A DNA stretch of 64,000 nucleotides from the IMG/VR virus record IMGVR_UViG_3300005511_000001; one strand, 5' to 3'. The notes under the pieces were generated by a model that saw only the letters and a list, made by a program, of their open reading frames with translations, was not told the DNA's origin and did not search any database. Source of the stretch: a virus. A program made the translations under genes and the position numbers. Below, piece after piece: positions 5,294-63,806 of the stretch. How positions within the stretch are numbered: the stretch's first letter is position 1; every line of letters starts with the position of its first letter.

Positions 5294-6153
5294 CAGATAA
5301 GTTCCTTCAGTTCGAAGCCGACGTTGTTGCGGGAGTGAGTGGGGTATTCGATGGGGCTCAGCGTGCGCATGCGTGCAAGGAACTGGCGCCGGATGGCATG
5401 GATCGTGTCGGCAGGGTCATGGATCCAGAGCACCTCCTGATCGACGCCGCCCTGCCCTTGAATCTCGAAGGCGTTGGAAAAAATCTCGTCTTCGTCGAGC
5501 AGGTTCAGTGCGACCTTCTGGATCCGGGTCGGATATCGATGCTGGTAGTACTCCGCGCCGCTCAAGGCCGCATAGACTTCGGTCGTGGTTTCCCATCCGA
5601 GCGAAGTCCCGTCGTAGCTCATGTTGATGCTCGGCTGCCAGGCGTCGCCGATGAACATGCGACCGATCTGAATAAAGCCAGCAGGGTTCGCTGAATCATC
5701 GAACTCGATCAGCCAGTACCTGGTGTACTTGGAAGCCGGCATGATGTGGATCAGCTCGGATACGTAGCGCTTGCGCTGCTCGGCCGTGTACGTCCGGCTC
5801 CACCAGCCCTCATCCTTCCAGTCCAGCGTGTTGAGGCCGTAAATGACCTTCCAGACCCTCGTCCATCCGGAATCGTAAATGGCAGTGGCGTAGCTCGCAT
5901 CACTGAATGCACGCGCGCGAAACTTCGACTTGATCGACAGGTTGTGGTACCGCCAACTGAGCAGCCGGACCTTGCGGTTCGCGCCAAGGTCCAATTTGAA
6001 TTGCGTGCTGGTCAGAGCCAGATCAGCCGAGCGCGCCACGTCACCCAGCGTGCGAGTCTGCAGCTTTTTTAGCGGCAGCGAGGGCATCCACGAACCTCCA
6101 GTCAATGCGCCGGCGTCGATGCGATTGGGGAACCCGATCATGCAATTAGCCAT
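5293..6153 (-). CDS. Tail tip / distal tail structural protein
   Basis: 286 aa between hub-like gene and fibre; aromatic-rich beta-sandwich-like sequence. Confidence 0.65.
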   Translation of the reverse strand: MANCMIGFPNRIDAGALTGGSWMPSLPLKKLQTRTLGDVARSADLALTSTQFKLDLGANRKVRLLSWRYHNLSIKSKFRARAFSDASYATAIYDSGWTRVWKVIYGLNTLDWKDEGWWSRTYTAEQRKRYVSELIHIMPASKYTRYWLIEFDDSANPAGFIQIGRMFIGDAWQPSINMSYDGTSLGWETTTEVYAALSGAEYYQHRYPTRIQKVALNLLDEDEIFSNAFEIQGQGGVDQEVLWIHDPADTIHAIRRQFLARMRTLSPIEYPTHSRNNVGFELKELI

Positions 6154-6156
6154 TGA

Positions 6157-7686
6157 TCAACCCCATACTGTAAAAATGATCTTGTTTGTCGCCAGTTCAG
6201 GACGGCGGCCGACGACGCGGAACAACTTCCCTGCACTGAGGCCAAAGCGCGGCAGTGTCAGCCGCGCCACGCTCATCAGCGAGACAGTCTTCCCATTCAG
6301 CTTGTCGAGCGAGATCGGCACATCGAAAATGTCTCGGCGCTTCTTGTGAAGCTGCAGTTGACGATCCGTTTCCGCACTCGCATCGGCCTCGTTGACGAGC
6401 AGTCCGTCGGCGGCCATGTCCGTCGCAAGCAAATGCTTCTTTTTGATATCAGAATCGGAAGACACTACAGTGCGACTCGCGGTGGCGAGGTAGGCACGGC
6501 GATCTGCCGTGACTGCCCCTGCGAGCCCGGACGTCTGCACCGACCAATTACGGCCGTACTTCATCGACACGCGCCAGACCGGCACATCGTTGTCACGCGC
6601 TGGGCGCCGCTCAATGCCGTCCAGAGTGTCGAAATCCTTCAACTCGATCAGGGGCGCGCCAGCTGGCTCGGCCAGTACGCCCATGCGCAATACGCCTAAC
6701 TCGTCAAAGCCATACCAGGCGCCAATGCTTGCAGCGACCATATCCATCGCCGACTGAATCGTGGTGCTCTCGTCGTTCAGCCATATTCCGACGGCCCCAG
6801 CACTGACCGCGTCGAGCGCAGTGACGTCAGCGGTCGAAATCTCAGGCCCAGACAGCGCGATGCCGGCGAGCCGGCGCAGGACCTGTGCAACCGTGCGGTC
6901 GGAAGGTCCGGCGCCTTGCGCGGCATCCGCAGTGACCAGGCCTGCAGGTACAGCACCAAGCTGAAAGAACCCTTCGGCCAAGCAGGTGTTGTAGGATCCG
7001 GAGGCCGGCGTCGAGGTCTGTAGTAGTTCTTTCGTGGCAAAGTCGCTGCCGAACGTCAGCTCGAGGCCGCTGTCGTACACCGCCGTGATGGCGGCCAGCG
7101 CCCCATCGTTCAGCTGATACGTCAGCTTCGAAGTGTTCGCCGGCACAGCGGGCACATTGAAGACCGCGCCGAACACGCGCGGCTTGACCTTCCCCATCAA
7201 ATCGGACGGGGTGCCCTCGAAGCCCAGCGGCAGGACGTTGGAGCCGGCGTAACGATTCGACAGCGCGGGTACGCTGAACAGGTACTGCTTGTCGCGCAGC
7301 CGAAACACCATCTCTCGCCAGTTGGCCTCGGGCTGCCCCTCGAGCGTTCCGGTGAAAATAGTCTGGAAGTCCGCCGGGTAAGCGCCACCAGTGCCGTAGC
7401 GGATAGTCACCACGCGGCCGTCGAAGCCGTAGTCGAGCCACTCATCGAACTGGCCGTCGACGTTGATGACGACGATTTCGCCGGTTTCCAGCTTCGTCGC
7501 GCCGCCAGTTGTCTTGCCGTCCGAATAGGCGTGCACGCCGATGCTGCCCGGCTCTTTCAGCGCCTGCTTAAAGGCCACGTTGGCAGGTGTATCGCTCGGC
7601 GCAGTGACAAAATGGTTGTCCGAGAGATACAGGGTCGTGAGGGTGCCTGCCGCATCGATCGCGGCAGTGATCTCGATCAGGATCAT
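6157..7686 (-). CDS. Tail tip / baseplate hub-like protein
   Basis: 509 aa directly after the tape measure gene. Confidence 0.65.
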   Translation of the reverse strand: MILIEITAAIDAAGTLTTLYLSDNHFVTAPSDTPANVAFKQALKEPGSIGVHAYSDGKTTGGATKLETGEIVVINVDGQFDEWLDYGFDGRVVTIRYGTGGAYPADFQTIFTGTLEGQPEANWREMVFRLRDKQYLFSVPALSNRYAGSNVLPLGFEGTPSDLMGKVKPRVFGAVFNVPAVPANTSKLTYQLNDGALAAITAVYDSGLELTFGSDFATKELLQTSTPASGSYNTCLAEGFFQLGAVPAGLVTADAAQGAGPSDRTVAQVLRRLAGIALSGPEISTADVTALDAVSAGAVGIWLNDESTTIQSAMDMVAASIGAWYGFDELGVLRMGVLAEPAGAPLIELKDFDTLDGIERRPARDNDVPVWRVSMKYGRNWSVQTSGLAGAVTADRRAYLATASRTVVSSDSDIKKKHLLATDMAADGLLVNEADASAETDRQLQLHKKRRDIFDVPISLDKLNGKTVSLMSVARLTLPRFGLSAGKLFRVVGRRPELATNKIIFTVWG

Positions 7687-7689
7687 CGG

Positions 7690-10600
7690 TTACGCCCTCG
7701 CCAGTTCGCGCTTGAGCTTCACGTTGTCTTCCGCGAGTGTGTCGAGCTTCTTCAGCGTTGCGACACCCACGGCACCTCGCTGGGTTTTGTCCGAGCGCAG
7801 TTCCGCAATCACCTCTTTCAACAACGAGGCGACCTCTGCGCTGGAGCTGGAATCAGACAGAGCAGCACGGGTCTGCGAAGCGGTGTACACCCGGCCTGTC
7901 TGACCAAAGTTCACCAGTTCAGGTCCCTCCTCTCCGACAAGCGACCAGCCATTCGCCAAACCTCCCTGGGCGTGAGGAGTCGGGTGCAGCGCCTTATATT
8001 CATCCGACCCGATAAAGCTGGCCGTCAGCTGGTCATAACTCATTCCACCTTGCACCATCTTCAGCCAATGGTCTAAGCCGGCCTGCTCGCCATGGCGGCC
8101 CAGCAGCGATACGTACAGGCCGTCAATGACGTCCAGCACTGCACTCTGTCCCTTGTCCGCAAGGCCTGAATCTCCAGGCCTTCCGGCAGCCTGATTCGCG
8201 CCAGCCAGCGCAATCATTGCCGCGCCAAGCTCCAGTGTCGCCTTCTGGAAATCCTGTACTGCCTTCGTGAGGGTATCGGTACTCTTGTCGAGTCCGAGCA
8301 CGTCGACTGCCATCTTGTCGAGAACATCAAGCTGCTGCTGAGCGATCGACGCCGCCGATTTCTGCGAGGCCAACTGCGTGGCTAAAACGCCCTGCACCTT
8401 GGCGTAGTCCCTCGAGTAGGCGTCCGTCGAGCCGTTGTATGCTCGCGAAGCCTGCAGCAGCGTTTGTGCCGCCGCGTTCTTTGCCTCCACCGTACTGGCT
8501 GCGTCGAACTGGCGCTGGGCCTCGAGATACTTCTGCTCCGGCGACAGCGTCGACAGGTCGCCCAGGTTCAGGCTGTCGATCAGCTTCTTCGTCGCATCCG
8601 CCTCTTGCATACGTTTATCGATGATGGATTGCAGGGCCGACCGCTCGCTTTCGTAGGCGCTTTGGGCATTACTCTTTGCGCTGTTGAAGCGGTTCAGCGC
8701 ATTGACCTGATCAGCCAGCGCACGGTTGGAGGCATCTATCGCCAGGCGCTGCTTGTTATATAGATCGATCGAGTTCAACGTCAGCTCATCGTACTGCTGT
8801 TGCAGGTCCTTGCGTTCGTCGGCAATCTCCTGCTCCGACTTGGTCAAGTCCTCGGTGGCCTTGTGCGTCTTCGCAAACGCATCAGCCAGCGCAAGAAGAG
8901 CGGCGTACTGCTGCGCGCCGGCCTCGGTGGCAAGTGCACCTGAGTTGGCCAGGCCCAGCACGTAGTCCTTGAACTTGTCGCGGGTGTCGAGACTTTGCAG
9001 CCCCATCGCCGCCAGCTGATCGGTGACATACTTCTGCACTGGCGCCAGTTGCTCCGCCTTAGTGAGGAAGTTCTGGTTGAACGAATTGGCCTGGTTGGCC
9101 AGCTTATCGATCCCGCCGACCAGTTCAATCAGGCGCCCGCGAGCCGCGATACTGGCGATGCCGGTGGCGCCGAACGTCGTGCCGCTGGCGGCCAAGATCG
9201 AATCGAGCTTGGCGTAGTCGCCGGCGAGACGAATCACGGTCTCAGCATACCCCTCGCCCACCTTGCGGAACTGGTCGAGCTGTGGGAACGCTGCAGCCGC
9301 GATCTCGTCCATCGACTTCGAAATCACGGAGTTGAGGGCGTCGGTCAGCGCGGTGCCGGTCAGACCTTTCAGCGAAACCTTCGTACTTTCCAGTGTGAGA
9401 TTGTCCAGCACCTTGGTCACATCAGCGGCCGAACCACCCATCGCCGTAGCGGCGGCCCGCAGCGACGTGTCGAGGTTGGTGAAGATCAGGCCAAACTGCT
9501 TCGACAGCTCGTCATTCAAGCCCTGCACTTCGACACGGTTGCTGGTCTTCTTGGACAGGCCGAAGAAGCTGGACTTGGTGGTGTCGACGCTTGCGTACTG
9601 ATCGAACCCGATACCCTGCTGCAGCGACCGGATGCTGCCACCGTATTGCAAGCCGGAGTCAACGATTTTTTGCGTAGTCTTTCCCCAGAACGATGCCAAG
9701 GCATTCGATAGTGGCTCCGTCCACTTCCCAACGCCAAGCGAGGTCAGCGTGGTCACCGCCGAAGTCACGCCGTTCCCGATCGATAGCACGCCCTCCTTCA
9801 CGCCGAAGCTGGAGCCATCGGTCAGGCCCGGAGTGCGCACCACCAAATTCGTTAGGCCGGTCATGGCCGATTCGATGTTCTGCAGAGCGGTCAGCATGCC
9901 TTGATTGATGGGCAGCATGTCGTTCGAATTTGTGGTCAACTGCTCAATCGAGCGGCGGATGGAATCAGATTTCGCCGAGCTGTCGCCGAAAACCGTACCA
10001 GTGCCTTGCGCCTTCTGGACGTCGGCGGCCGACTGCCCACCACCACCCCCGCTGCCACCGCTCAGCGCCACCCCGAGGCCGGTCACGATCGCGGCCATCG
10101 CGGCCATGCGGCCAAATGCCGAATATGGGTCGCCCTCGCCTTGAGTTAGCACGGCATTGACACCCTTGATGAGGCTGAGGGCGACCTCGGCGCTGTGCAG
10201 CAAGACCGATGCCGCGTGCATGGCCTGGTAGCCGCGCGATCCTTCGGCGAAGAAGCCTTGCGCCGCGGTGGTCATGTCCGCGTACGACTTGATTTGCGCG
10301 AGCGAACCATTCAACTGCGCCCGATTTATTGCTTCAATCTTTGCCGGATTGTCGTCTGCCAGTTTCTTCGCTGCTATCAAATCTTTCTGAGCGCGGAGTT
10401 GGCCTTCCACACCTTGGGCGTAGGCCTTGAACATGTCGCCAGCGGCCTTGCCGGCCTTGCCGAAGGCGTCGGTCAGACTATCGGAGATCATCTGGCCGGT
10501 ACGCTGCCAATCCTTGATCGCTTGGTCAGCAGCCTTGTCCTTGTACTGGATGGATTGCTGAATATCGAGGCCGGCGGCAATGCGCGCACGGGCAGCGCGC

Positions 10601-29029: not shown

Positions 29030-29270
29030 ACGTCCAACACTATGTGAAGTGCAGGCTAGAACCTATTTCTCGACATTGTCGAGGGCCCGTACAACCAAGG
29101 TAACTCGTCGGTGAGTGAACCTTTTGATGGTTGTCACTTTCTACGTTGCTATCCCGCCGTTGGCGCGCTGTCAAACCGCGCAATGTAGCGAGTCACTAGA
29201 ATTAGGTGCCGGGTTACAGCGTCCCAGCGGCCGGTCTGGCGCGCGGCCTCGCGAACTGGCGCGAAAATAG

Positions 29271-29294
29271 AAAAAGCCACCGCAAGGGTGGCTT
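29271..29294 (-). terminator. tR'-like terminator
   Basis: AAGCCACC-N5-GGTGGCTT stem plus T run on minus strand, about 155 nt downstream of the pR'-like promoter. Confidence 0.75.
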
Positions 29295-29433
29295 CGATTG
29301 GTGCTCCAGCGCTATCTGCGAAGTGAGCTGTACACGCGAGCGAAAGCATCAACGGGTTGGTGCTAGCCTCGAATCTCGGTTATCGGTGAGGCTCGAAGCC
29401 TACATTACGAGTGCCGAGAGTGTGTATGGCTGG

Positions 29434-29463
29434 ACGTTAACGTACTCAAGTGGAAGCTGTCAA
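29434..29463 (-). promoter_or_regulatory. pR'-like late promoter
   Basis: TTGACA-18 nt-TAACGT on minus strand, upstream of terminator, tRNA and late genes. Confidence 0.65.
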
Positions 29464-29498: not shown

Positions 29499-30566
29499 CT
29501 AACCTCTAGCAGCTTTAACGACGCTAGCTACCTGATCTAGTCCATCGAACATCGACACCGACTTGTCCTCGCTATACGATATCGGGGAAAAAATTATAGT
29601 CTCGAATTTTTGCAACAGCTCTTTATTCTGTTTGAGGTCATCTGCATACTTCACATAGCGCTGAATAAACTGACAAAGTGTTTTGCGAAGCTCAATCTGA
29701 AGCAACTGAGCTTTACAGGCGTCAGCACTTTTCAAGAAAACGCGATAGAAATATATAAACAAGAAGGTTGCGCTGAACGTGACAGCGATGAATGCAGACA
29801 CTAGTGGAGTACTAGCAGCCAAGACCTGCTCGCGGTGGGTGAATAATAAGGAAATATCGAAACCTACTGGCATTAATACAGCGAAGGCTAAGACCACCAT
29901 CATAATCCGAGTTCGAAGAAGCTCCGCTTTCTTGGATTTTGATAGGTCATTAAAGCCACTAAATAAGCCTACAAAATTAAAGGCGTCGCGTTGCTTCTCG
30001 AGCATTGATTGCAATTGCTTTACCGTAGCGGTTTGATTCTTCAAATCACGCTTCCACTCCTTAACCTTTCCGTGTACATCCTGGGCAATCTTGGGTACCT
30101 CCTTGAGATCCGCGACTGCGGTGTCACTCAGCAAGGACTTAAGCAGGGCCGCGGGAAGGCGCACTTGGCCAAACTCAATAATAGCCTTTGCTTGCGAATT
30201 AAATAAGTCTCGGTTTTCATCGACGAAATTTCGATACTCCCGAAGATCGTCTGAGAGCTCGTCTTGAACGCACATATCGTATTCACACACGACGACAAAA
30301 AAAATAGCAAGATATAGGTCTAAATTAAGACTACGAACATCAACATTGGTAAAACTTACGTCTTTGATCATGCCACCAAATCGACCGGTGGAGAAATGGC
30401 AGAACTTATCGAATTCTTTCGTATTTTGGATAAATATTTCGATAACGCGCGCCAGGTGTTGCGCCTTCCTCTGTGTGTGATCTCCCTCCGCAAAGTTTAG
30501 CGAGCTGGCTATCGCAAGCAGATTTTTCAATTTCCCCAGAGTAGCTTCTTCTTGGAAGAACATCAT
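29499..30566 (-). CDS. AT-richer moron: coiled-coil plus 2-TM membrane protein
   Basis: 355 aa, visibly AT-rich, GGAG SD, two TM helices (IMMVVLAFAVLMPVGF; LVSAFIAVTFSATFLFIYF). Confidence 0.85.
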   Translation of the reverse strand: MMFFQEEATLGKLKNLLAIASSLNFAEGDHTQRKAQHLARVIEIFIQNTKEFDKFCHFSTGRFGGMIKDVSFTNVDVRSLNLDLYLAIFFVVVCEYDMCVQDELSDDLREYRNFVDENRDLFNSQAKAIIEFGQVRLPAALLKSLLSDTAVADLKEVPKIAQDVHGKVKEWKRDLKNQTATVKQLQSMLEKQRDAFNFVGLFSGFNDLSKSKKAELLRTRIMMVVLAFAVLMPVGFDISLLFTHREQVLAASTPLVSAFIAVTFSATFLFIYFYRVFLKSADACKAQLLQIELRKTLCQFIQRYVKYADDLKQNKELLQKFETIIFSPISYSEDKSVSMFDGLDQVASVVKAARG

Positions 30567-30637: not shown

Positions 30638-30724
30638 TTAGGCGTTCCGGAGCGAAACCGCGGCACGCGTATTATGTGACTGCAGCATCCCTTCAAGCTC
30701 ACTGACCATGTCCAGCACGCGCTC
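30638..30724 (-). pseudogene. Displaced original 3' end of the Q gene
   Basis: Encodes ERVLDMVSELEGMLQSHNTRAAVSLRNA*; 21/28 aa identical to Q residues 153-180. Confidence 0.9.
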
Positions 30725-32261
30725 AGGTCCCGAATAGATCATCAATCGAACAATAACGGCAGCTCGCGAACTCCTCAGGCGTCTCCTCGCGCATCACAAG
30801 TATGGGATAGTGAACAACTTCGACTGGCAAAAGATAGACACCGCGCACAGCCGAGTTTGATGGCTCAAGTTGGATTGCGATGACGAAATGAATTCCTGCG
30901 ACCTCGCGTAGTGGGAAACTCCAACGGTATGGCCGATCCACGCGATTGCGGCGCGCCCGGACGACAAGCAATCGCGTGTGGGCGGCGCCGTTCAAAACGA
31001 ACGCGTTCTTCGACGGAAGCGGATCGAATGACCCGCCTGCGGCTGTCACACATTCTTTGATCTTTGCCATTGCGTCGTTGCGGATGGTCTCGATCTTGCG
31101 CAGGCTTTCCAAGTAGCGCTCGGCCCGCTGTGTTGCGGGCACGCCTGCCAGTCGGTATGCGTTGCTCAGCGTCTGGAAGCGGTTGAGGAAGGCGTTGTGA
31201 TGCGGCCCGTCGGGATAATCGTCGATCAGCTTCGTCGAGATCACGCCGTGCTGCGCGTAGATTTGTCGGAGAATATTCAACAGCTCCTGCCGCGTGTAGC
31301 GTTCCGCACGAACCCGGCGGAGCTCCTGAGCACGATTGAAGGTATCCGGATCAATCAAGGAGGCAAAGGCGCGCGGCTTCCTGATCCACGCGTCGCGAGG
31401 ATTGTCGTGGACCTGGCCCTGCAGTTTGTACGATTTCCGGTTGTAGACCACCGTGCCGATATACTTCTCGTTTGTCAAAATGCTGACGATCACCGGCGGG
31501 GTCCATGGTCGACCAGCATCCGAGACGATGCCGCGAGAATTGAGCTCGGCCGCTATCGCAGTGTCGCCTTTCTCGCCGCTCACATACCAGTCGTAGATTT
31601 GGCGAATAACGGCCACCTCTTCGTCCGGGCCCGGCACGAAGACCACGTGATCAGCGGGTGCCCCTTTTCGATCACCGGCAACCAGGATCCGACGAATTTC
31701 ACCGTTCGGTTTGACCGACGCGCGCCGAAGGCCATATCCTGCTGGGCCACCTTGCTTAAAGCCAGACTTTACGAGGCGTGTCTGTGCCTCAAACACTTTC
31801 ACGGACAGGGCGCGACTGTACTCAGCCGCCATGGCGCGCTTCATCGTCTTGACGATGGCTGCTATCGCAGAGCCATCGTTATCGAATTCCTCCGCACAAT
31901 AAACCACGTCGATCCCGGCGTTCCGACAGAGGAACTCGTAGTGTGCGCTTTCGTCGACATCTTGAAAACGCCCCCACCGGCTAACATCGTAGACCAGAAT
32001 TACGTGGTACTCGACGTCCGTACTGGTGACGTCGGCCAACAACCGCTGCAGACCTGGTCGTCCTTTTATCCCCAGCCCGCTCTTCCCGGGGTCTGAGTAC
32101 TCGGAGACGACCTCTATTCGGTGGCGGCGAGCGTACGCGGCGATGGCCGCCCGCTGGTTCGCGATTGAACCCGCCTGCCCATCCGATGACATTCGAAGGT
32201 AGGAAGCAGCCTTCTTACCTACCAACGCGCGGGTGCTGCGCGTGGACTTACTTGATGGCAT
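30723..32261 (-). CDS. Large serine recombinase (resolvase plus recombinase domain)
   Basis: YLRMS catalytic motif, D.G.SG....GRPGLQRL, YDVSRWGR, EYSR.LS.KV, GG..GYGL, L.NE.Y.G..V.N; GAGGTG SD. Confidence 0.93.
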   Translation of the reverse strand: MPSSKSTRSTRALVGKKAASYLRMSSDGQAGSIANQRAAIAAYARRHRIEVVSEYSDPGKSGLGIKGRPGLQRLLADVTSTDVEYHVILVYDVSRWGRFQDVDESAHYEFLCRNAGIDVVYCAEEFDNDGSAIAAIVKTMKRAMAAEYSRALSVKVFEAQTRLVKSGFKQGGPAGYGLRRASVKPNGEIRRILVAGDRKGAPADHVVFVPGPDEEVAVIRQIYDWYVSGEKGDTAIAAELNSRGIVSDAGRPWTPPVIVSILTNEKYIGTVVYNRKSYKLQGQVHDNPRDAWIRKPRAFASLIDPDTFNRAQELRRVRAERYTRQELLNILRQIYAQHGVISTKLIDDYPDGPHHNAFLNRFQTLSNAYRLAGVPATQRAERYLESLRKIETIRNDAMAKIKECVTAAGGSFDPLPSKNAFVLNGAAHTRLLVVRARRNRVDRPYRWSFPLREVAGIHFVIAIQLEPSNSAVRGVYLLPVEVVHYPILVMREETPEEFASCRYCSIDDLFGT

Positions 32262-32598
32262 GGCACACCTCGATCAGTTACCCATACCCTCAAACGATAG
32301 CACGACTATCTGCGCCTCCGGTCTCTCGTCTCACGAGGACAAAGAGAGCGACCTCGATCGAAACGTGGTTCTCCGCCAGAAACGCCGCGGCGAACTGAAG
32401 CCCGTGCATCCTTGCCAATTCCAGCGCCACTCGGCACATTGCTTTCGTCCTGTAATCCATCAGCGCAGATTACCAGACCGGTGCGCGCTCCGTTTGACGT
32501 GGATCAACCTCCATGGCTATTGCGCAGCATTACCGAAGCACGAGCATTATGCGACTGAAGCAGGCCTTCCAGTTCTGACACCATATCCTTGACCTTCT
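30724..32598 (-). mobile_element. Minimal large-serine-recombinase element inserted in Q
   Basis: GAG core at both junctions (30722-30724 and 32597-32599); carries replacement Q 3' end, a 56-aa ORF and the recombinase. Confidence 0.85.
32290..32460 (-). CDS. 56-aa ORF within the LSR element (candidate directionality factor)
   Basis: Manually translated MDYRTKAMCRVALELARMHGLQFAAAFLAENHVSIEVALFVLVRRETGGADSRAIV*; below track cutoff. Confidence 0.5.
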   Translation of the reverse strand: MDYRTKAMCRVALELARMHGLQFAAAFLAENHVSIEVALFVLVRRETGGADSRAIV

Positions 32599-33055
32599 CC
32601 AGTTCGAAGCCTCCGGCGCCGGAGATCTCAGCCTTGCCGGTACCTCTGCAAGGCACGCAGATGCGGCGGTCGGCGGTGTTGCCGCTGCCGCTGCACGCCG
32701 GACACTTCCCGTCCAGCCAGTAGGCCAGCGAGCGCTCGGCCACACGGCGGTACAGCGCCTGGGCGGCTTGAGCATCCCACGCGGTGCCCTGCTTCACCCA
32801 CTTGCGCTCGCCACCCTTCTCGATCACGCGTGCTGTCCAGAGCTTCACCAGCTTTGCCAAGTTGGCGCTGCCCGATTCGAACAGCTTGTGCTGCGTGCCG
32901 TCGGCGTACTTCACGCGCGATAGCAGCGAGCCGATGCCTGCGCCGGTGGTATCAGCCAAAGCGGCCGCGCACAACGCGTCAGTGGCGTGGTGGTGTTCGT
33001 CATCCTGCAGGTTGCTCGAATTGACGGAGTGAAGATAGCGGTCAGCAAAGCCCAT
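32504..33055 (-). CDS. Late antiterminator Q-like protein (hybrid 3' end)
   Basis: Last PR-operon gene; CPAC.GSG...C.PCRGTG zinc finger; position upstream of pR'-tR'. Confidence 0.8.
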   Translation of the reverse strand: MGFADRYLHSVNSSNLQDDEHHHATDALCAAALADTTGAGIGSLLSRVKYADGTQHKLFESGSANLAKLVKLWTARVIEKGGERKWVKQGTAWDAQAAQALYRRVAERSLAYWLDGKCPACSGSGNTADRRICVPCRGTGKAEISGAGGFELEKVKDMVSELEGLLQSHNARASVMLRNSHGG

Positions 33056-33119
33056 TCGGTACGCTCCAAGAAGTGATACTGGACGTTAACACAGCTACAG
33101 AAAAATGGAAGGGGCTGGC

Positions 33120-33548
33120 TCAAACACGGAGCACACCGTTCCGGTCAAACTCTCGCGTAGCTGCCGCTGCGGCGCGCCAAATTTCAGCGTTCGACACCGT
33201 CCGCAGGAACTCCATCAGCTGCGGCAAGCCTTCCTTGAGCACGCGCATTTCGTCACCGCTGGCGCCAGTCTTGCCGGCGCGTTCGGCACGCTGCTGGATC
33301 TCGGCGCATGCCAGCACGACGCCCTGGGCCACCTCACGGATCCGGTGGCCGGCCGGCGCCGTGCGCTTCGCCAGATCGGCCGCCGACAACAGGTCGTAGA
33401 TGTGCTGCTCCTGCAAGTGGTCCATGCCCAGAGCGATCATCGCTTGGTAGCCGGGCATCTCCATCTGCACCTGGCGGCGCATGCCGAACGGCAGCACCGC
33501 GGGCTTTTGCCTGTAGGGCTTCCGTGGCTTCTTCGTCTTAGCCATCAT
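33120..33548 (-). CDS. Hypothetical nin-region protein
   Basis: MMAKTKKPRKPY start, GGAGG SD; 142 aa. Confidence 0.7.
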   Translation of the reverse strand: MMAKTKKPRKPYRQKPAVLPFGMRRQVQMEMPGYQAMIALGMDHLQEQHIYDLLSAADLAKRTAPAGHRIREVAQGVVLACAEIQQRAERAGKTGASGDEMRVLKEGLPQLMEFLRTVSNAEIWRAAAAATREFDRNGVLRV

Positions 33549-34303
33549 TCCTCCGGATCTTGCAGGCCCAGGGCCTGCCTTGCGTCTTTCAACTGAAACG
33601 GCTTGAGCGACCTGTCGCCGCGCGCGTGCCGCGCCATGATCTTCTTCGCCCACGCCTTGTGGTCGACCTTGCTGCTGGCCGACTTCGTGATGCCGGCGGC
33701 GCCGAGCTGGGCCAGCATGCGCCTCGCCTCGTCCGGGGCGGTGGGCGACTTACCCGGCGCCGGCAGCTGCAACCGAGCCGGGGGAATCGGCTCCCACTGC
33801 CCGCGCGACAGCTGCGTCTTCAGTGCCGCCGCCCAGCGGTCTCTCATGAACTGGCCGGCTTGCAGCAGCAAATCGCGAGAGAGGCTACTGGCGGCCCAGT
33901 AGATCGCCGGGTGCGACCACACCCCTACCTCGCCCTTTCCGCGCGCTTCCAGCCCCGCTATCGCCTCGTGGTAAGCCTCCATCGGATCGATGGGAGGGTT
34001 GCACAGCGCAGCGAACTGCGGAACGGTCGGCGGCCAGTCCCGATACTGCCGGCGGCACTCGCGCAATCCGGCGGCGGCCTTTTCGACCGAGACGCCCTCC
34101 TCCGCGAAAACCGTTACGCACTCGTCGCGCCAGTTCTGCAGCGACTGCTCGGTCTTGAACTGCTTGCTCCAGGTGCCCGGATACATGCCGTCCAGCCGGT
34201 TAAACAGGTGATCCAGCGCCGACTTGCCCTCGAGCTTGTCGCGCGGCGCTGTCCAGTACGCCAGCGCGTCAGCGCGGGTTGATGTCGATAATTGCACCGG
34301 CAC
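33545..34303 (-). CDS. Replication protein P-like helicase loader
   Basis: WPPT.PQF..LC, EAY.EA, WSHPAIYWAA motifs. Confidence 0.8.
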   Translation of the reverse strand: MPVQLSTSTRADALAYWTAPRDKLEGKSALDHLFNRLDGMYPGTWSKQFKTEQSLQNWRDECVTVFAEEGVSVEKAAAGLRECRRQYRDWPPTVPQFAALCNPPIDPMEAYHEAIAGLEARGKGEVGVWSHPAIYWAASSLSRDLLLQAGQFMRDRWAAALKTQLSRGQWEPIPPARLQLPAPGKSPTAPDEARRMLAQLGAAGITKSASSKVDHKAWAKKIMARHARGDRSLKPFQLKDARQALGLQDPEE

Positions 34304-46558: not shown

Positions 46559-47296
46559 ATGAAGATTCTCACAACAGAAGATGAGGCCGCCAGCCTAAAG
46601 GCTCGGTTCGAAGGCGTGAATAGGGCGGAATTTGCTCGTATCCACGACTTAAAAGGTGGCCAGTCGATGATTTATCAGAACATCACCGGTCGGCGCCCAA
46701 TAAGCATGGAGGCCGCGATGGCGTACGCTCGTGGCTTTGGATGCTCACTTGAAGACATAAGCCCTCGGCTTGCAAAGGAGGCAGCGGCTGCCGCGAGACA
46801 CTTGGAGTCTCCACAGGCGATCACTGAAGTTCTGCCAGGAGCAATGCGGGTGGTGGTCGCGGAACCCGGCGACCCAGACTTCTACGAAATCCCAAAAGTT
46901 CAATTAGTTCTCTCGGCAGGTATGACAGGCTTCCAGACAGTTCCTGAAATTTATGACGGCAGCAAGCTGAGCATCTCAAAAAATTGGGTTGACCGACATG
47001 GGTATGTTCCAGGCCGCCTGATCGCCATCCGCATCAAGGGCGATAGCATGGAGCCCAACCTGTACGAAGGCGACCAGGTCATCATCAACACGGCCGATAC
47101 GAGGATGGAGGATGGCGCTGTATTCGCTGTGAACTTCGAAGGCCAAGCGGTCGTGAAGCGGCTTGCGCGCGACCGCGGCGAATGGTGGCTAACCTCCGAC
47201 AATCCAGATCAGGTACGTCACCGGCGAAAGAGTTGCCGGGAAGGTGAATGCATCATTATCGGGCGCATTGTTAAGCGCGAGACAGATCGAATCTAA
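46559..47296 (+). CDS. cI: CI repressor (HTH plus S24 autopeptidase)
   Basis: N-terminal HTH; SAG cleavage site, GDSMEP catalytic Ser, VVKRL catalytic Lys. Confidence 0.93.
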   Translation: MKILTTEDEAASLKARFEGVNRAEFARIHDLKGGQSMIYQNITGRRPISMEAAMAYARGFGCSLEDISPRLAKEAAAAARHLESPQAITEVLPGAMRVVVAEPGDPDFYEIPKVQLVLSAGMTGFQTVPEIYDGSKLSISKNWVDRHGYVPGRLIAIRIKGDSMEPNLYEGDQVIINTADTRMEDGAVFAVNFEGQAVVKRLARDRGEWWLTSDNPDQVRHRRKSCREGECIIIGRIVKRETDRI

Positions 47297-62516: not shown

Positions 62517-62773
62517 TGTACAGCCCGGACGAAATTGAACGCATCGCAGAGTTGGTCGCAGCGAAAGCGCCGTCGACATTCCTCTCGTCCGCCGAGATCG
62601 CAGAGTTGACCGGTCGTCGCGCGCACAAGTTGCAAATCGAGACCTTGCGCAAGCAAGGAGTACCATTCTTCCTCAATGCTGCCGGCCGGCCTGTCGTCCC
62701 CCGCTCCGCGATCGACGGCAGGGGCGTGGCGGCGCCAAAGCCGGCAAAAAAAGCATGGACACCACCGGACTAG
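62513..62773 (+). CDS. xis: Excisionase (DUF4224-like)
   Basis: FLS.AEIAELTG.....Q...LR..G.PF..N..GRP.V; directly upstream of integrase. Confidence 0.8.
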   Translation: MMYSPDEIERIAELVAAKAPSTFLSSAEIAELTGRRAHKLQIETLRKQGVPFFLNAAGRPVVPRSAIDGRGVAAPKPAKKAWTPPD

Positions 62774-62777
62774 AAAT

Positions 62778-63806
62778 ATGGGCAGAAAGCCAACAGTAAA
62801 TCTCACCCTCCCGTCAGGCATGCGCAAGCGCGTGCGCGGGAAAACGATATATTATTATTATGACAAGGGCGGTAAGCCTCGCAAGGAGGTCTCCCTGGGC
62901 ACCGACTTTATCGCCGCGCTCCGCAAGTACGCCGACCTGCATCAAACAGATGCCCCGAGCCGGGAAATTCTATTCGTCGATGTTGTCAAGAAATACCGTT
63001 CCGACGCACTTCCTAAGCTGGCCGCTAGCACTATCCGCATCCAACAATCCGATATCAAGCACGTTGAGGCGTACTTCAAGGATGCCCCAATCGACCAGAT
63101 CAAGCCGATGCACATTGCCAGGTTTCTCGAAAAGCACAAGGACAAGCCCACGACGGCGAATCGCTGCAAAAGGCTATTCAGCACGATGTGGAACAAGGCC
63201 CGAGGGTGGGGATATACCGACCTCCCTAACCCCTGCGTTGGGGTGGAGACGCACACTCTGCAGAAGAGGACTGTGTACATAACCGACGAGGTGTACAACG
63301 CGGTGCACTCGGCAGGCACCGCAGCGCTGCAGGACGCGCTGGACTTGGCCTACCTCACTGGCCAGCGCCCTGGTGACGCACTGAACATGTCGGAGCACGA
63401 TATCATCGAGGGCCATCTAATAGTGACGCAAATCAAGACGAAGCAGCCACTCAGGATCGAAATCAAGGGCGAACTGGAAGCGTTGATCGAGCGGATCCGA
63501 GCGCGCAAGCGCACGCACAATATCCTCACGGCCGCCCTGCTGGTGAACCTGAACGGGAAGCGCCTCACGAAGGCCGTGCTACGAAACCACTTCGAGGATG
63601 CGCGGAAGAGCGCAGCTGCGGCGCACCCCGCGCTGGCCGAGCAGATCAGGAATTTCTGGTTCTACGACCTGCGCGCGAAGGCGGCAGACGACACCAGCGA
63701 CGAACGCGGGGAACAAGCGGCGAGCGATCTACTGGGACACGATAGCGTTAGGACAACACAGCGACACTACCTGCGCCGGGGCAAGGTTGTTGCCCCTACA
63801 AAGTAA
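62778..63806 (+). CDS. int: Tyrosine integrase
   Basis: YLTGQRP.D (R), DLRAKA, LLGH, T..HY; N-terminal arm-binding YYYY motif. Confidence 0.93.
   Translation: MGRKPTVNLTLPSGMRKRVRGKTIYYYYDKGGKPRKEVSLGTDFIAALRKYADLHQTDAPSREILFVDVVKKYRSDALPKLAASTIRIQQSDIKHVEAYFKDAPIDQIKPMHIARFLEKHKDKPTTANRCKRLFSTMWNKARGWGYTDLPNPCVGVETHTLQKRTVYITDEVYNAVHSAGTAALQDALDLAYLTGQRPGDALNMSEHDIIEGHLIVTQIKTKQPLRIEIKGELEALIERIRARKRTHNILTAALLVNLNGKRLTKAVLRNHFEDARKSAAAAHPALAEQIRNFWFYDLRAKAADDTSDERGEQAASDLLGHDSVRTTQRHYLRRGKVVAPTK

Follow-up and report, generated by a model that had tools for sequence, protein, structure and literature searches.

A minimal serine-recombinase element that probably supplies a substitute 3' end to the Q-like gene of a prophage

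Results

A Q-like gene is followed by a second copy of its own C terminus

The 64,000-nucleotide stretch of viral DNA analyzed here in its entirety (IMG/VR record IMGVR_UViG_3300005511_000001, hereafter the window) is part of a prophage of a soil bacterium, found on a 1.03-Mb scaffold of a rhizosphere metagenome. On the minus strand, a gene for a P-like helicase loader (33545-34303) and a replication initiator gene precede a Q-like open reading frame (ORF), an ORF encoding 56 amino acids (aa), and a gene for a serine recombinase. Past the recombinase, the same strand carries a start-less frame encoding a Q tail, a gene for a 355-aa protein, a late promoter block, tRNA-Thr, and then the virion side of the prophage (metallopeptidase, DUF2280, terminase, and virion genes). 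The segment 32579..30705, which comprises the small ORF, the serine recombinase, and an attachment (att) region that mimics the 3' end of Q, is probably a minimal site-specific integrative element. The features discussed below are listed in Table 1.

The Q-like ORF ends with GGFELEKVKDMVSELEGLLQSHNARASVMLRNSHGG before its stop codon, and the frame that opens at 30724 reads ERVLDMVSELEGMLQSHNTRAAVSLRNA up to a stop at 30638. This second C terminus has no start codon. The two copies are identical at 21/28 aa and 55/84 nucleotides (nt), and different codons are used at 14 of the 21 identical residues. As assessed with a hidden Markov model of the C termini of the Q-like family, which matches the second tail with E = 1.7e-16, the resemblance is not due to chance. 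The likeness continues for ~15 nt beyond both stops (CCACGTCAAA versus CCAAGCGTCAAA). The copies are in register and 1,875 bp apart, and joining them yields an in-frame protein of 180 aa. In a preliminary description of this DNA, the doubled Q C terminus, its synonymous divergence, and the restoration of a 180-aa Q upon joining of the element ends had already been pointed out, and each of these was reproduced by direct reading of the minus strand, by the model match, and by recomputation from the two copies. The same description took GAG to be the only sequence common to the two junctions, which is incorrect, as the tail copies also have GA(T/C)ATGGT in common, 12 nt past GAG.

Units of the same design recur next to Q in relatives

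We fetched contigs carrying both recombinase and Q homologues, including related Oxalobacteraceae prophages (loci designated by L and a number). The order Q, small ORF, and recombinase is found in L003, L004/L005, L006, L028-L034, and L040, with recombinases that are 78-91% identical (76-91% over this same-orientation clade as a whole). In the window, L028/L031-33, and L006, there is another Q tail after the recombinase; in L004, this copy is decayed. A convergent clade with 40-44% identity comprises L060, L065-67, L082, L086, L089, L126, and L134. There, the small ORF and the recombinase are directed towards Q, and the stop codon of the recombinase overlaps the Q tail.

Three loci of the convergent clade (L065, L066, and L126) contain two units in tandem and three Q tails. 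The tail positions in L065 (4933, 6801, and 8654) define units of 1,868 and 1,853 bp. The two recombinases of L065 are just 59% identical and therefore reflect successive insertion of two different elements rather than a recent duplication. Tandem arrays with three tails thus show that insertion has occurred repeatedly.

Among the 94 recombinases placed in a tree, the two Q-associated groups are each a clade with 100% support in the Shimodaira-Hasegawa-like approximate likelihood ratio test, and both clades fall inside one 31-member branch. The other 63 relatives have neither a Q gene nor a flanking duplication, and a scan of genome contigs with a single recombinase sequence recovered only distant (~38% identical) Bradyrhizobium relatives without Q. 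The unit is an accessory of the Q locus, being present in 10 of the 111 distinct Q loci that have 2.6 kb or more of sequence downstream, and missing from 91% of them. Most relatives have an uninterrupted Q gene that ends in an ER/KVLDMVSELEG-type tail, and either type of junction is often seen in such genes. The preliminary description had anticipated such uninterrupted alleles as well as a link between homologues of the large serine recombinase (LSR) and Q tails, and this link was found repeatedly, in two clades. Its view of the segment as an insertion of a minimal LSR and small ORF, with a replacement tail, is borne out by the relatives and the tandem arrays; the junction that it placed at GAG is not. 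Taken together, these findings provide good support for the insertion of a minimal element that replaces the end of the gene.

Boundary comparisons point to a core in the most conserved codons of Q

Three comparisons bear on where the element begins and ends. First, the window and L032 are identical at 106/120 positions up to TGAGCGCGTGCTGGACATGGT (ATGGT), with the final 34 nt identical, and at only 37/66 positions beyond (Fisher P = 1.2e-6 for the switch). Second, the third tails of L065 and L066 are near-identical through ATGGTCAGCGAG and unrelated beyond. Third, in L196, whose recombinase is 76% identical, the left flank is not Q, and Q-like sequence starts exactly at the joint TGGT/GAGCGAGCC; the tail is decayed there, and a displaced tail is found after the recombinase. 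At the other end of the element, the alignment of a related public-run contig to the 3' end of the recombinase gene breaks exactly at 30705. The three comparisons agree in pointing to a GAYATGGT core ~20 bp downstream of GAG, and the crossover would lie within TGGT (32583..32580). This core encodes Asp157 and Met158, the sole invariant residues of the C-terminal helix in the Q-like family. The earlier proposal of a junction at GAG with an AG core is not supported by these positions. The AG-centered dyad offered in its favor is a weak argument, because pairings of 9/13 and 12/21 are only marginally above those of shuffled sequences (P of ~0.03-0.04 with all centers scanned, and 0.19 at a half-width of 16).

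With the crossover in GAYATGGT, 24 codons are replaced, the ERVLDMV codons after the stop of the recombinase become the right arm of the element, and FELEKVKDMV becomes the phage's own sequence. The Q alleles of L002 and L112 have the FELEKVKDMV junction without a recombinase, which fits a phage origin of this stretch. The Q-like residues up to Val159 would thus be phage-encoded, and the last 24 codons, from 32579, would be element-borne. As delimited in this way, the inferred element contains the small ORF and the recombinase between a replacement Q tail, which has ~30 nt of 3' flank, and a Q-like right arm of 20 nt. The tail assigned to the element is 83-93% identical at the nt level to the tails of the L029/L032 elements and of the LSR-free alleles L002/L112. 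The displaced tail is presumably untranslated.

Table 1. Coordinates of the Q-like gene, the inferred element, and adjoining features in the window
Feature	Position	Strand	Basis or remark
Q-like late regulator gene, 183 aa, with CxxCxGxG...CxxCxGxG zinc finger and long C-terminal helix	32504..33055	-	ORF list, fold, position
Left junction core GATATGGT (putative), codons for Asp157-Met158-Val159	32580..32587	-	D157/M158 invariant; start of Q-like sequence in L196
Inferred element, 1,875 bp	30705..32579	-	Tail register, boundary comparisons, unit in relatives
Putative replacement tail SELEGLLQSHNARASVMLRNSHGG (then stop), P' arm, element-borne	32504..32579	-	Direct reading and boundary comparison
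Small ORF, 56 aa, directly upstream of recombinase	32290..32460	-	Conserved in relatives
Serine recombinase, 512 aa, resolvase catalytic and recombinase domains	30723..32261	-	Pfam, PHROG
Putative right arm (P arm) GAGCGCGTGCTGGACATGGT, Q-like codons ERVLDMV	30705..30724	-	Begins inside recombinase stop codon
Putative displaced original Q tail (B' arm), (V)SELEGMLQSHNTRAAVSLRNA (then stop)	30638..30704	-	No start codon
355-aa low-GC gene (phrog_9373)	29499..30566	-	Outside element; between old Q stop and late promoter
Late promoter-like TTGACA-17/18-TAACGT, ~170-nt leader, intrinsic terminator (29295..29273)	29265..29463	-	pR'-tR'-like layout

The recombinase has no detectable zinc ribbon and is preceded by a conserved small ORF

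The recombinase matches PF00239 at 1.3e-22 (residues 18-161), PF07508 at 2e-19 (residues 214-316), and the integrase family phrog_95 at 1e-59. Its ORF is intact. Ser25, in YLRMSSDGQ, is invariant among 34 recombinase homologues, as are the other conserved residues of the alignment, and the conserved catalytic residues are present. There is no match to Zn_ribbon_recom in residues 310-512 even at E = 10, and no four-cysteine cluster is visible in the sequence. Only a weak match to HNH_repeat (0.014) is found in the C-terminal 200 aa. The protein therefore appears, as judged from its sequence, to have no detectable zinc-ribbon domain. The best matches in NCBIfam are CcrB, CcrC, and CcrA, but these are weak, with 27-56 bits against cut-offs of 700-900. 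Membership of the Ccr clade, of the staphylococcal cassette chromosome (SCC) type, was rejected, as the Ccr models score far below their cut-offs and the target here is a phage gene. SCC elements target rlmH (PMC13739063).

The small ORF precedes the recombinase in every unit and is conserved in the two Q-associated clades, where M1, C9, A12, H19, G20, F23, A25, A26, L28, A38, and L42 are invariant. Searches of Pfam, PHROGs, and NCBIfam gave no match to it, and Atlas was uninformative. We regard it as a candidate directionality factor or regulator. In relatives, its conserved C terminus is SCYRW; the window and L032 have this stretch out of frame, and their protein ends with DSRAIV. The underlying DNA, TCGTGCTATCGTT, is still conserved (window 32290-32330, minus strand) and may act at the RNA or DNA level as a signal immediately before the start of the recombinase.

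The target gene is Q-like by fold and position

No curated Q family in Pfam, PHROGs, or NCBIfam matches the product of the target gene, for which only weak matches to DnaJ zinc fingers were obtained. There are 278 detected homologues, mostly of 176-185 aa, with the close ones in Duganella, Pseudoduganella, and Janthinobacterium. A model produced by AlphaFold (AF2) from 33 homologues, with a predicted local distance difference test score (pLDDT) of 75, is closest to Q-lambda in RNA-polymerase loading complexes, with Z 8.8 and a root-mean-square deviation of 3.1 over 127 residues for 7ubm_Q, and Z 8.2 for 7ubn_Q. AlpA scores Z 5.5, and unrelated folds score at most 4.9. The Foldseek list is likewise headed by Q-lambda entries, with weak E-values. 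For a helical protein, a fold match at Z <13 is suggestive and not proof. The gene follows the replication genes and lies just upstream of a late promoter, a short leader, a terminator, and the virion genes. It is reasonable on these structural and positional grounds to call the protein a Q-like late regulator. The earlier label of Q antiterminator is hence backed by fold and position, and not by a sequence-level match to a Q family in Pfam or PHROGs.

Related recombinases occur at a second target and in other contexts

L193 and L043, which have recombinases of ~51% identity and form a sister group to the clade of the window, carry a unit that has a copy of the late promoter and leader on each side rather than a Q tail. 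The copies lie at L193:3560-3790 and 5540-5720, and at L043:5877-6050 and 7834-8009. In both loci, the upstream promoter copy has no terminator, and the stop codon of the recombinase overlaps the -35 hexamer of the downstream copy. The upstream copy would drive the unit. In L003, L030, and L040, the left end is in the Q tail and the right end is at the late promoter, an arrangement that could have arisen by recombination between Q-type and promoter-type units. Several loci of the convergent clade continue directly into the promoter, without an old tail.

Other arrangements were noted. In L208 (reverse complement), an N-terminal Q fragment (family positions 6-63) at 601-765 lies 5.4 kb upstream of a complete Q at 6154-6696, with several cargo ORFs and, on the opposite strand, the gene for a 41%-identical recombinase in between. 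The same recombinase lies upstream of Q in L062, L094, and L168. The L208 arrangement may represent a larger relative of the element that replaces the head of the gene. A non-Q context is seen in L192:2026-5479 (Duganella sp. FT135W), where ParB/RepB genes and Tn7-like TniQ/TniB genes flank two divergent recombinases of the family, one of them 55% identical to that of the window. Distant members of the family occur as overlapping tandem recombinase pairs in the viral contigs L201, L226, L227, L238, and L252, where there is neither a Q gene nor a flanking duplication. In L002:1-7400 (Duganella WWCT01000036.1), a Q-like gene lies close to the gene for a tyrosine integrase, a few small genes, and a small-terminase-like gene of the DUF2280 type. 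No other virion genes are nearby, and the layout resembles that of a phage satellite.

Surroundings of the element in the prophage

The prophage has a gene for a CI-like repressor (46559-47296) and its own tyrosine integrase (62676-63806), which lies beside tRNA-Arg at the prophage end. Because the prophage has this integrase at tRNA-Arg, the serine recombinase is internal and not the integrase of the phage. The corresponding slot of L089, behind its displaced tail, is occupied by a gene for a 45%-identical homologue of the 355-aa phrog_9373 protein. The block of promoter, leader, and terminator stands upstream of tRNA-Thr and the virion genes, and conserved late promoter blocks are also found after Q or after LSR units in relatives. 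A search of Rfam matched only tRNA-Thr and nothing in the late leader or the element, and a phage collection gave no useful DNA match to the window. The 12-mer GTTAACGTCCAG is present twice on the minus strand, at 29430-29441, in the -10/+1 region of the late promoter, and at 33079-33090, 24 nt upstream of the start codon of Q, whereas ~0.01 occurrences per 64 kb are expected by chance. It may be a common regulatory or Q-binding motif.

Discussion

We propose that the recombinase pairs the Q-tail-like site of the element with GAYATGGT, the stretch of invariant Asp-Met-Val codons that a phage Q gene has for its C-terminal helix, and that strand exchange would take place inside TGGT. The phage gene would then run on into the 24-codon tail of the element and its ~30-nt 3' flank, which would keep Q intact at 183 aa, and the old tail, displaced 1.9 kb downstream, would be free to decay. 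The new left junction would again resemble a target, so that further insertions could follow and give rise to tandem arrays. The small ORF and the recombinase would be transcribed with Q after induction. Such co-transcription is likely, because there is no terminator or consensus promoter on the minus strand between the Q-like gene and the late promoter. Expression together with Q would in turn allow the element to move between co-resident phage genomes and to travel in virions. The anatomy of the unit, its recurrence, the arrays, the positions of the boundaries, and the accessory distribution are observed, whereas catalysis at these sites, the timing of expression, the part played by the small ORF, and mobility in the present day are inferred.

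A more ambitious reading, which we rate as slightly less likely than not, is that these units are hyperparasites of temperate phages and the smallest autonomous serine-recombinase elements known (~1.85-1.9 kb). Their expression would accompany that of Q in the lytic phase, and they would home into the invariant Q codons or the late promoter of co-resident phages, repair their target at the DNA level with the substitute that they carry, and be carried in virions, using a compact recombinase without a zinc ribbon and mutually homologous att sites.

Several observations weigh against insertion of an element at the Q gene. No empty site was found for this phage; the best match of the displaced tail has 74% nt identity, and an exact 30-mer of this tail is absent from viral contigs. 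No circle or excision joint was found in assembled (Logan) contigs, which drop rare forms, so this is not evidence of absence. The displaced tail is absent in L003, L030/L040, L060, L067, L082, and L086, for which secondary deletions are needed. The LSR-free alleles L002 and L112 have tails that are 83-85% identical to the element-borne one, and this type of tail may be a natural Q allele rather than specific to the element. As for the boundaries, dyad symmetry at the refined site does not exceed chance (best 8/16, against a null mean of 7.95 in shuffles). Of 13 natural alleles, 2 contain the 20-mer that the window has in common with L032, which means that this line of evidence alone could be coincidence, and L196 is a short Logan contig that is possibly chimeric. 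Identity profiles against L032, L006, L004, and L040 show no left boundary, because Q is conserved on both sides.

The main rival explanation is that a fixed, moron-like cassette lies downstream of Q, and that the extra tails are scars of homologous or illegitimate recombination between mosaic phages. Lambdoid phages are mosaic, with remnants of gene ends at module joints, and this explanation is favored by the finding of no empty site or circle for this phage, by a left boundary that is not visible in the identity profiles, and by LSR-free Q alleles that share both the tail type and the 3' flank. However, it leaves unexplained the near-equal tandem units with three in-register tails and recombinases that are 59% identical, the occurrence of one design in two recombinase clades of opposite orientation, the coincidence of breakpoints at one 8-nt core in three comparisons, and the parallel lineage that duplicates a promoter. 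We consider it unlikely.

Much less probable again is a programmed switch, which the preliminary description had offered as an option, in which excision at the time of induction would exchange one Q tail for the other and alter the activity of Q or late timing. Both tails of the window are indeed open and full length, excision keeps the frame and gives 180 aa, and the recombinase is probably on the Q transcript, with no terminator in between. However, the downstream tails have decayed in L004 and L089, the third tail of L066 contains an interrupting stop, and such tails are missing altogether from the six loci or locus pairs without a displaced tail listed above (L003, L030/L040, L060, L067, L082, and L086). 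Moreover, Q is intact even while the element is present, excision would work one way only, and 91% of Q loci have no unit. Least probable of all is that the tail duplication is incidental to a recombinase serving as the prophage's own integrase, or as a resolvase or invertase on the phage genome: the phrog_95 integrase match and the distant family members near viral-contig ends or in tandem pairs without Q would suit this, but the position of the gene in mid-prophage, between Q and the late promoter, and the tyrosine integrase by tRNA-Arg at the prophage end rule out the integrase role, and inversion is excluded because the repeats are direct, not inverted.

If the units interpreted here as insertions of a minimal element are mobile, temperate phages carry recombinase-driven parasites that bring along a spare end for the gene they split. 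This would be a DNA-level counterpart to the introns and inteins of phage genes and could partly explain mosaic joints at the boundary between Q and the late operon. It would also mean that compact serine recombinases, each with a conserved small partner ORF, have a natural target that is short and highly conserved. The tandem arrays imply a reusable site, which would be useful for defining new pairs of integrase and att sites, and the recombinase offers a testable case of a serine recombinase that seemingly works without the canonical zinc-ribbon domain. A full-text search of a limited set of the literature returned no description of recombinase-only elements inside phage Q genes, and this family of very small, stacking elements is apparently undescribed.

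Comparison with known systems

Elements of the SCC/SCCmec type use Ccr large serine recombinases to insert at the 3' end of staphylococcal rlmH (orfX), where the reading frame is kept, the site is regenerated, and elements stack in tandem. They are 20-60 kb long, carry cargo, are bounded by short direct repeats of 15-18 bp, and have a chromosomal housekeeping gene as their target. The element described here resembles them in the use of a serine recombinase at the 3' end of a conserved gene, the intact frame, the regenerated site, and the tandem stacks. It differs in being 1.9 kb long without cargo, in targeting a phage regulatory gene, in carrying ~105 nt of a diverged gene end, and in having a recombinase in which no zinc-ribbon domain was detected.

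Phage 21 and e14 integrate into E. coli icd by means of tyrosine integrases and provide a substitute 3' end. The likeness lies in the diverged copy of the target's last codons, which is carried by the element and has many synonymous differences, in the gene that stays functional, and in the old end that is left downstream as a pseudo-tail. Whereas phage 21 and e14 are whole prophages that use tyrosine recombinases on a bacterial gene, the present case would be a minimal serine-recombinase element in a prophage gene.

Elements that interrupt genes by means of an LSR include skin with SpoIVCA in sigK, SPbeta with SprA in spsM, A118-like phages in comK, and the XisF-dependent element in fdxN. Here too, an LSR, often accompanied by a small accessory factor, is encoded by an element inside a coding sequence, and precise excision restores the frame. 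However, those elements disrupt the gene and act as switches, whereas the replacement tail would keep Q working, and excision would be unneeded for its function.

The recombinase shares its resolvase catalytic domain and recombinase domain, and presumably a 2-bp crossover, with the integrases of phiC31, Bxb1, TP901-1, and A118/LI. In contrast to canonical phage serine integrases, which have zinc-ribbon and coiled-coil regions and act on largely unrelated attP and attB, no zinc ribbon was detected, and the site of the element and its target are homologous over ~125 bp. Homing endonuclease genes, introns, and inteins are also selfish residents of conserved phage genes that avoid harm to their host and target its most conserved codons, but they depend on a double-strand break and on splicing, whereas the present element would rely on site-specific recombination with gene repair at the DNA level.

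The closest analogues thus appear to be SCC/Ccr at rlmH and the replacement of icd ends by phage 21 and e14. Site-specific integrative elements that restore the gene they enter are familiar in principle; what is new here is the size, the phage target, the homologous att sites, and the architecture of the recombinase.

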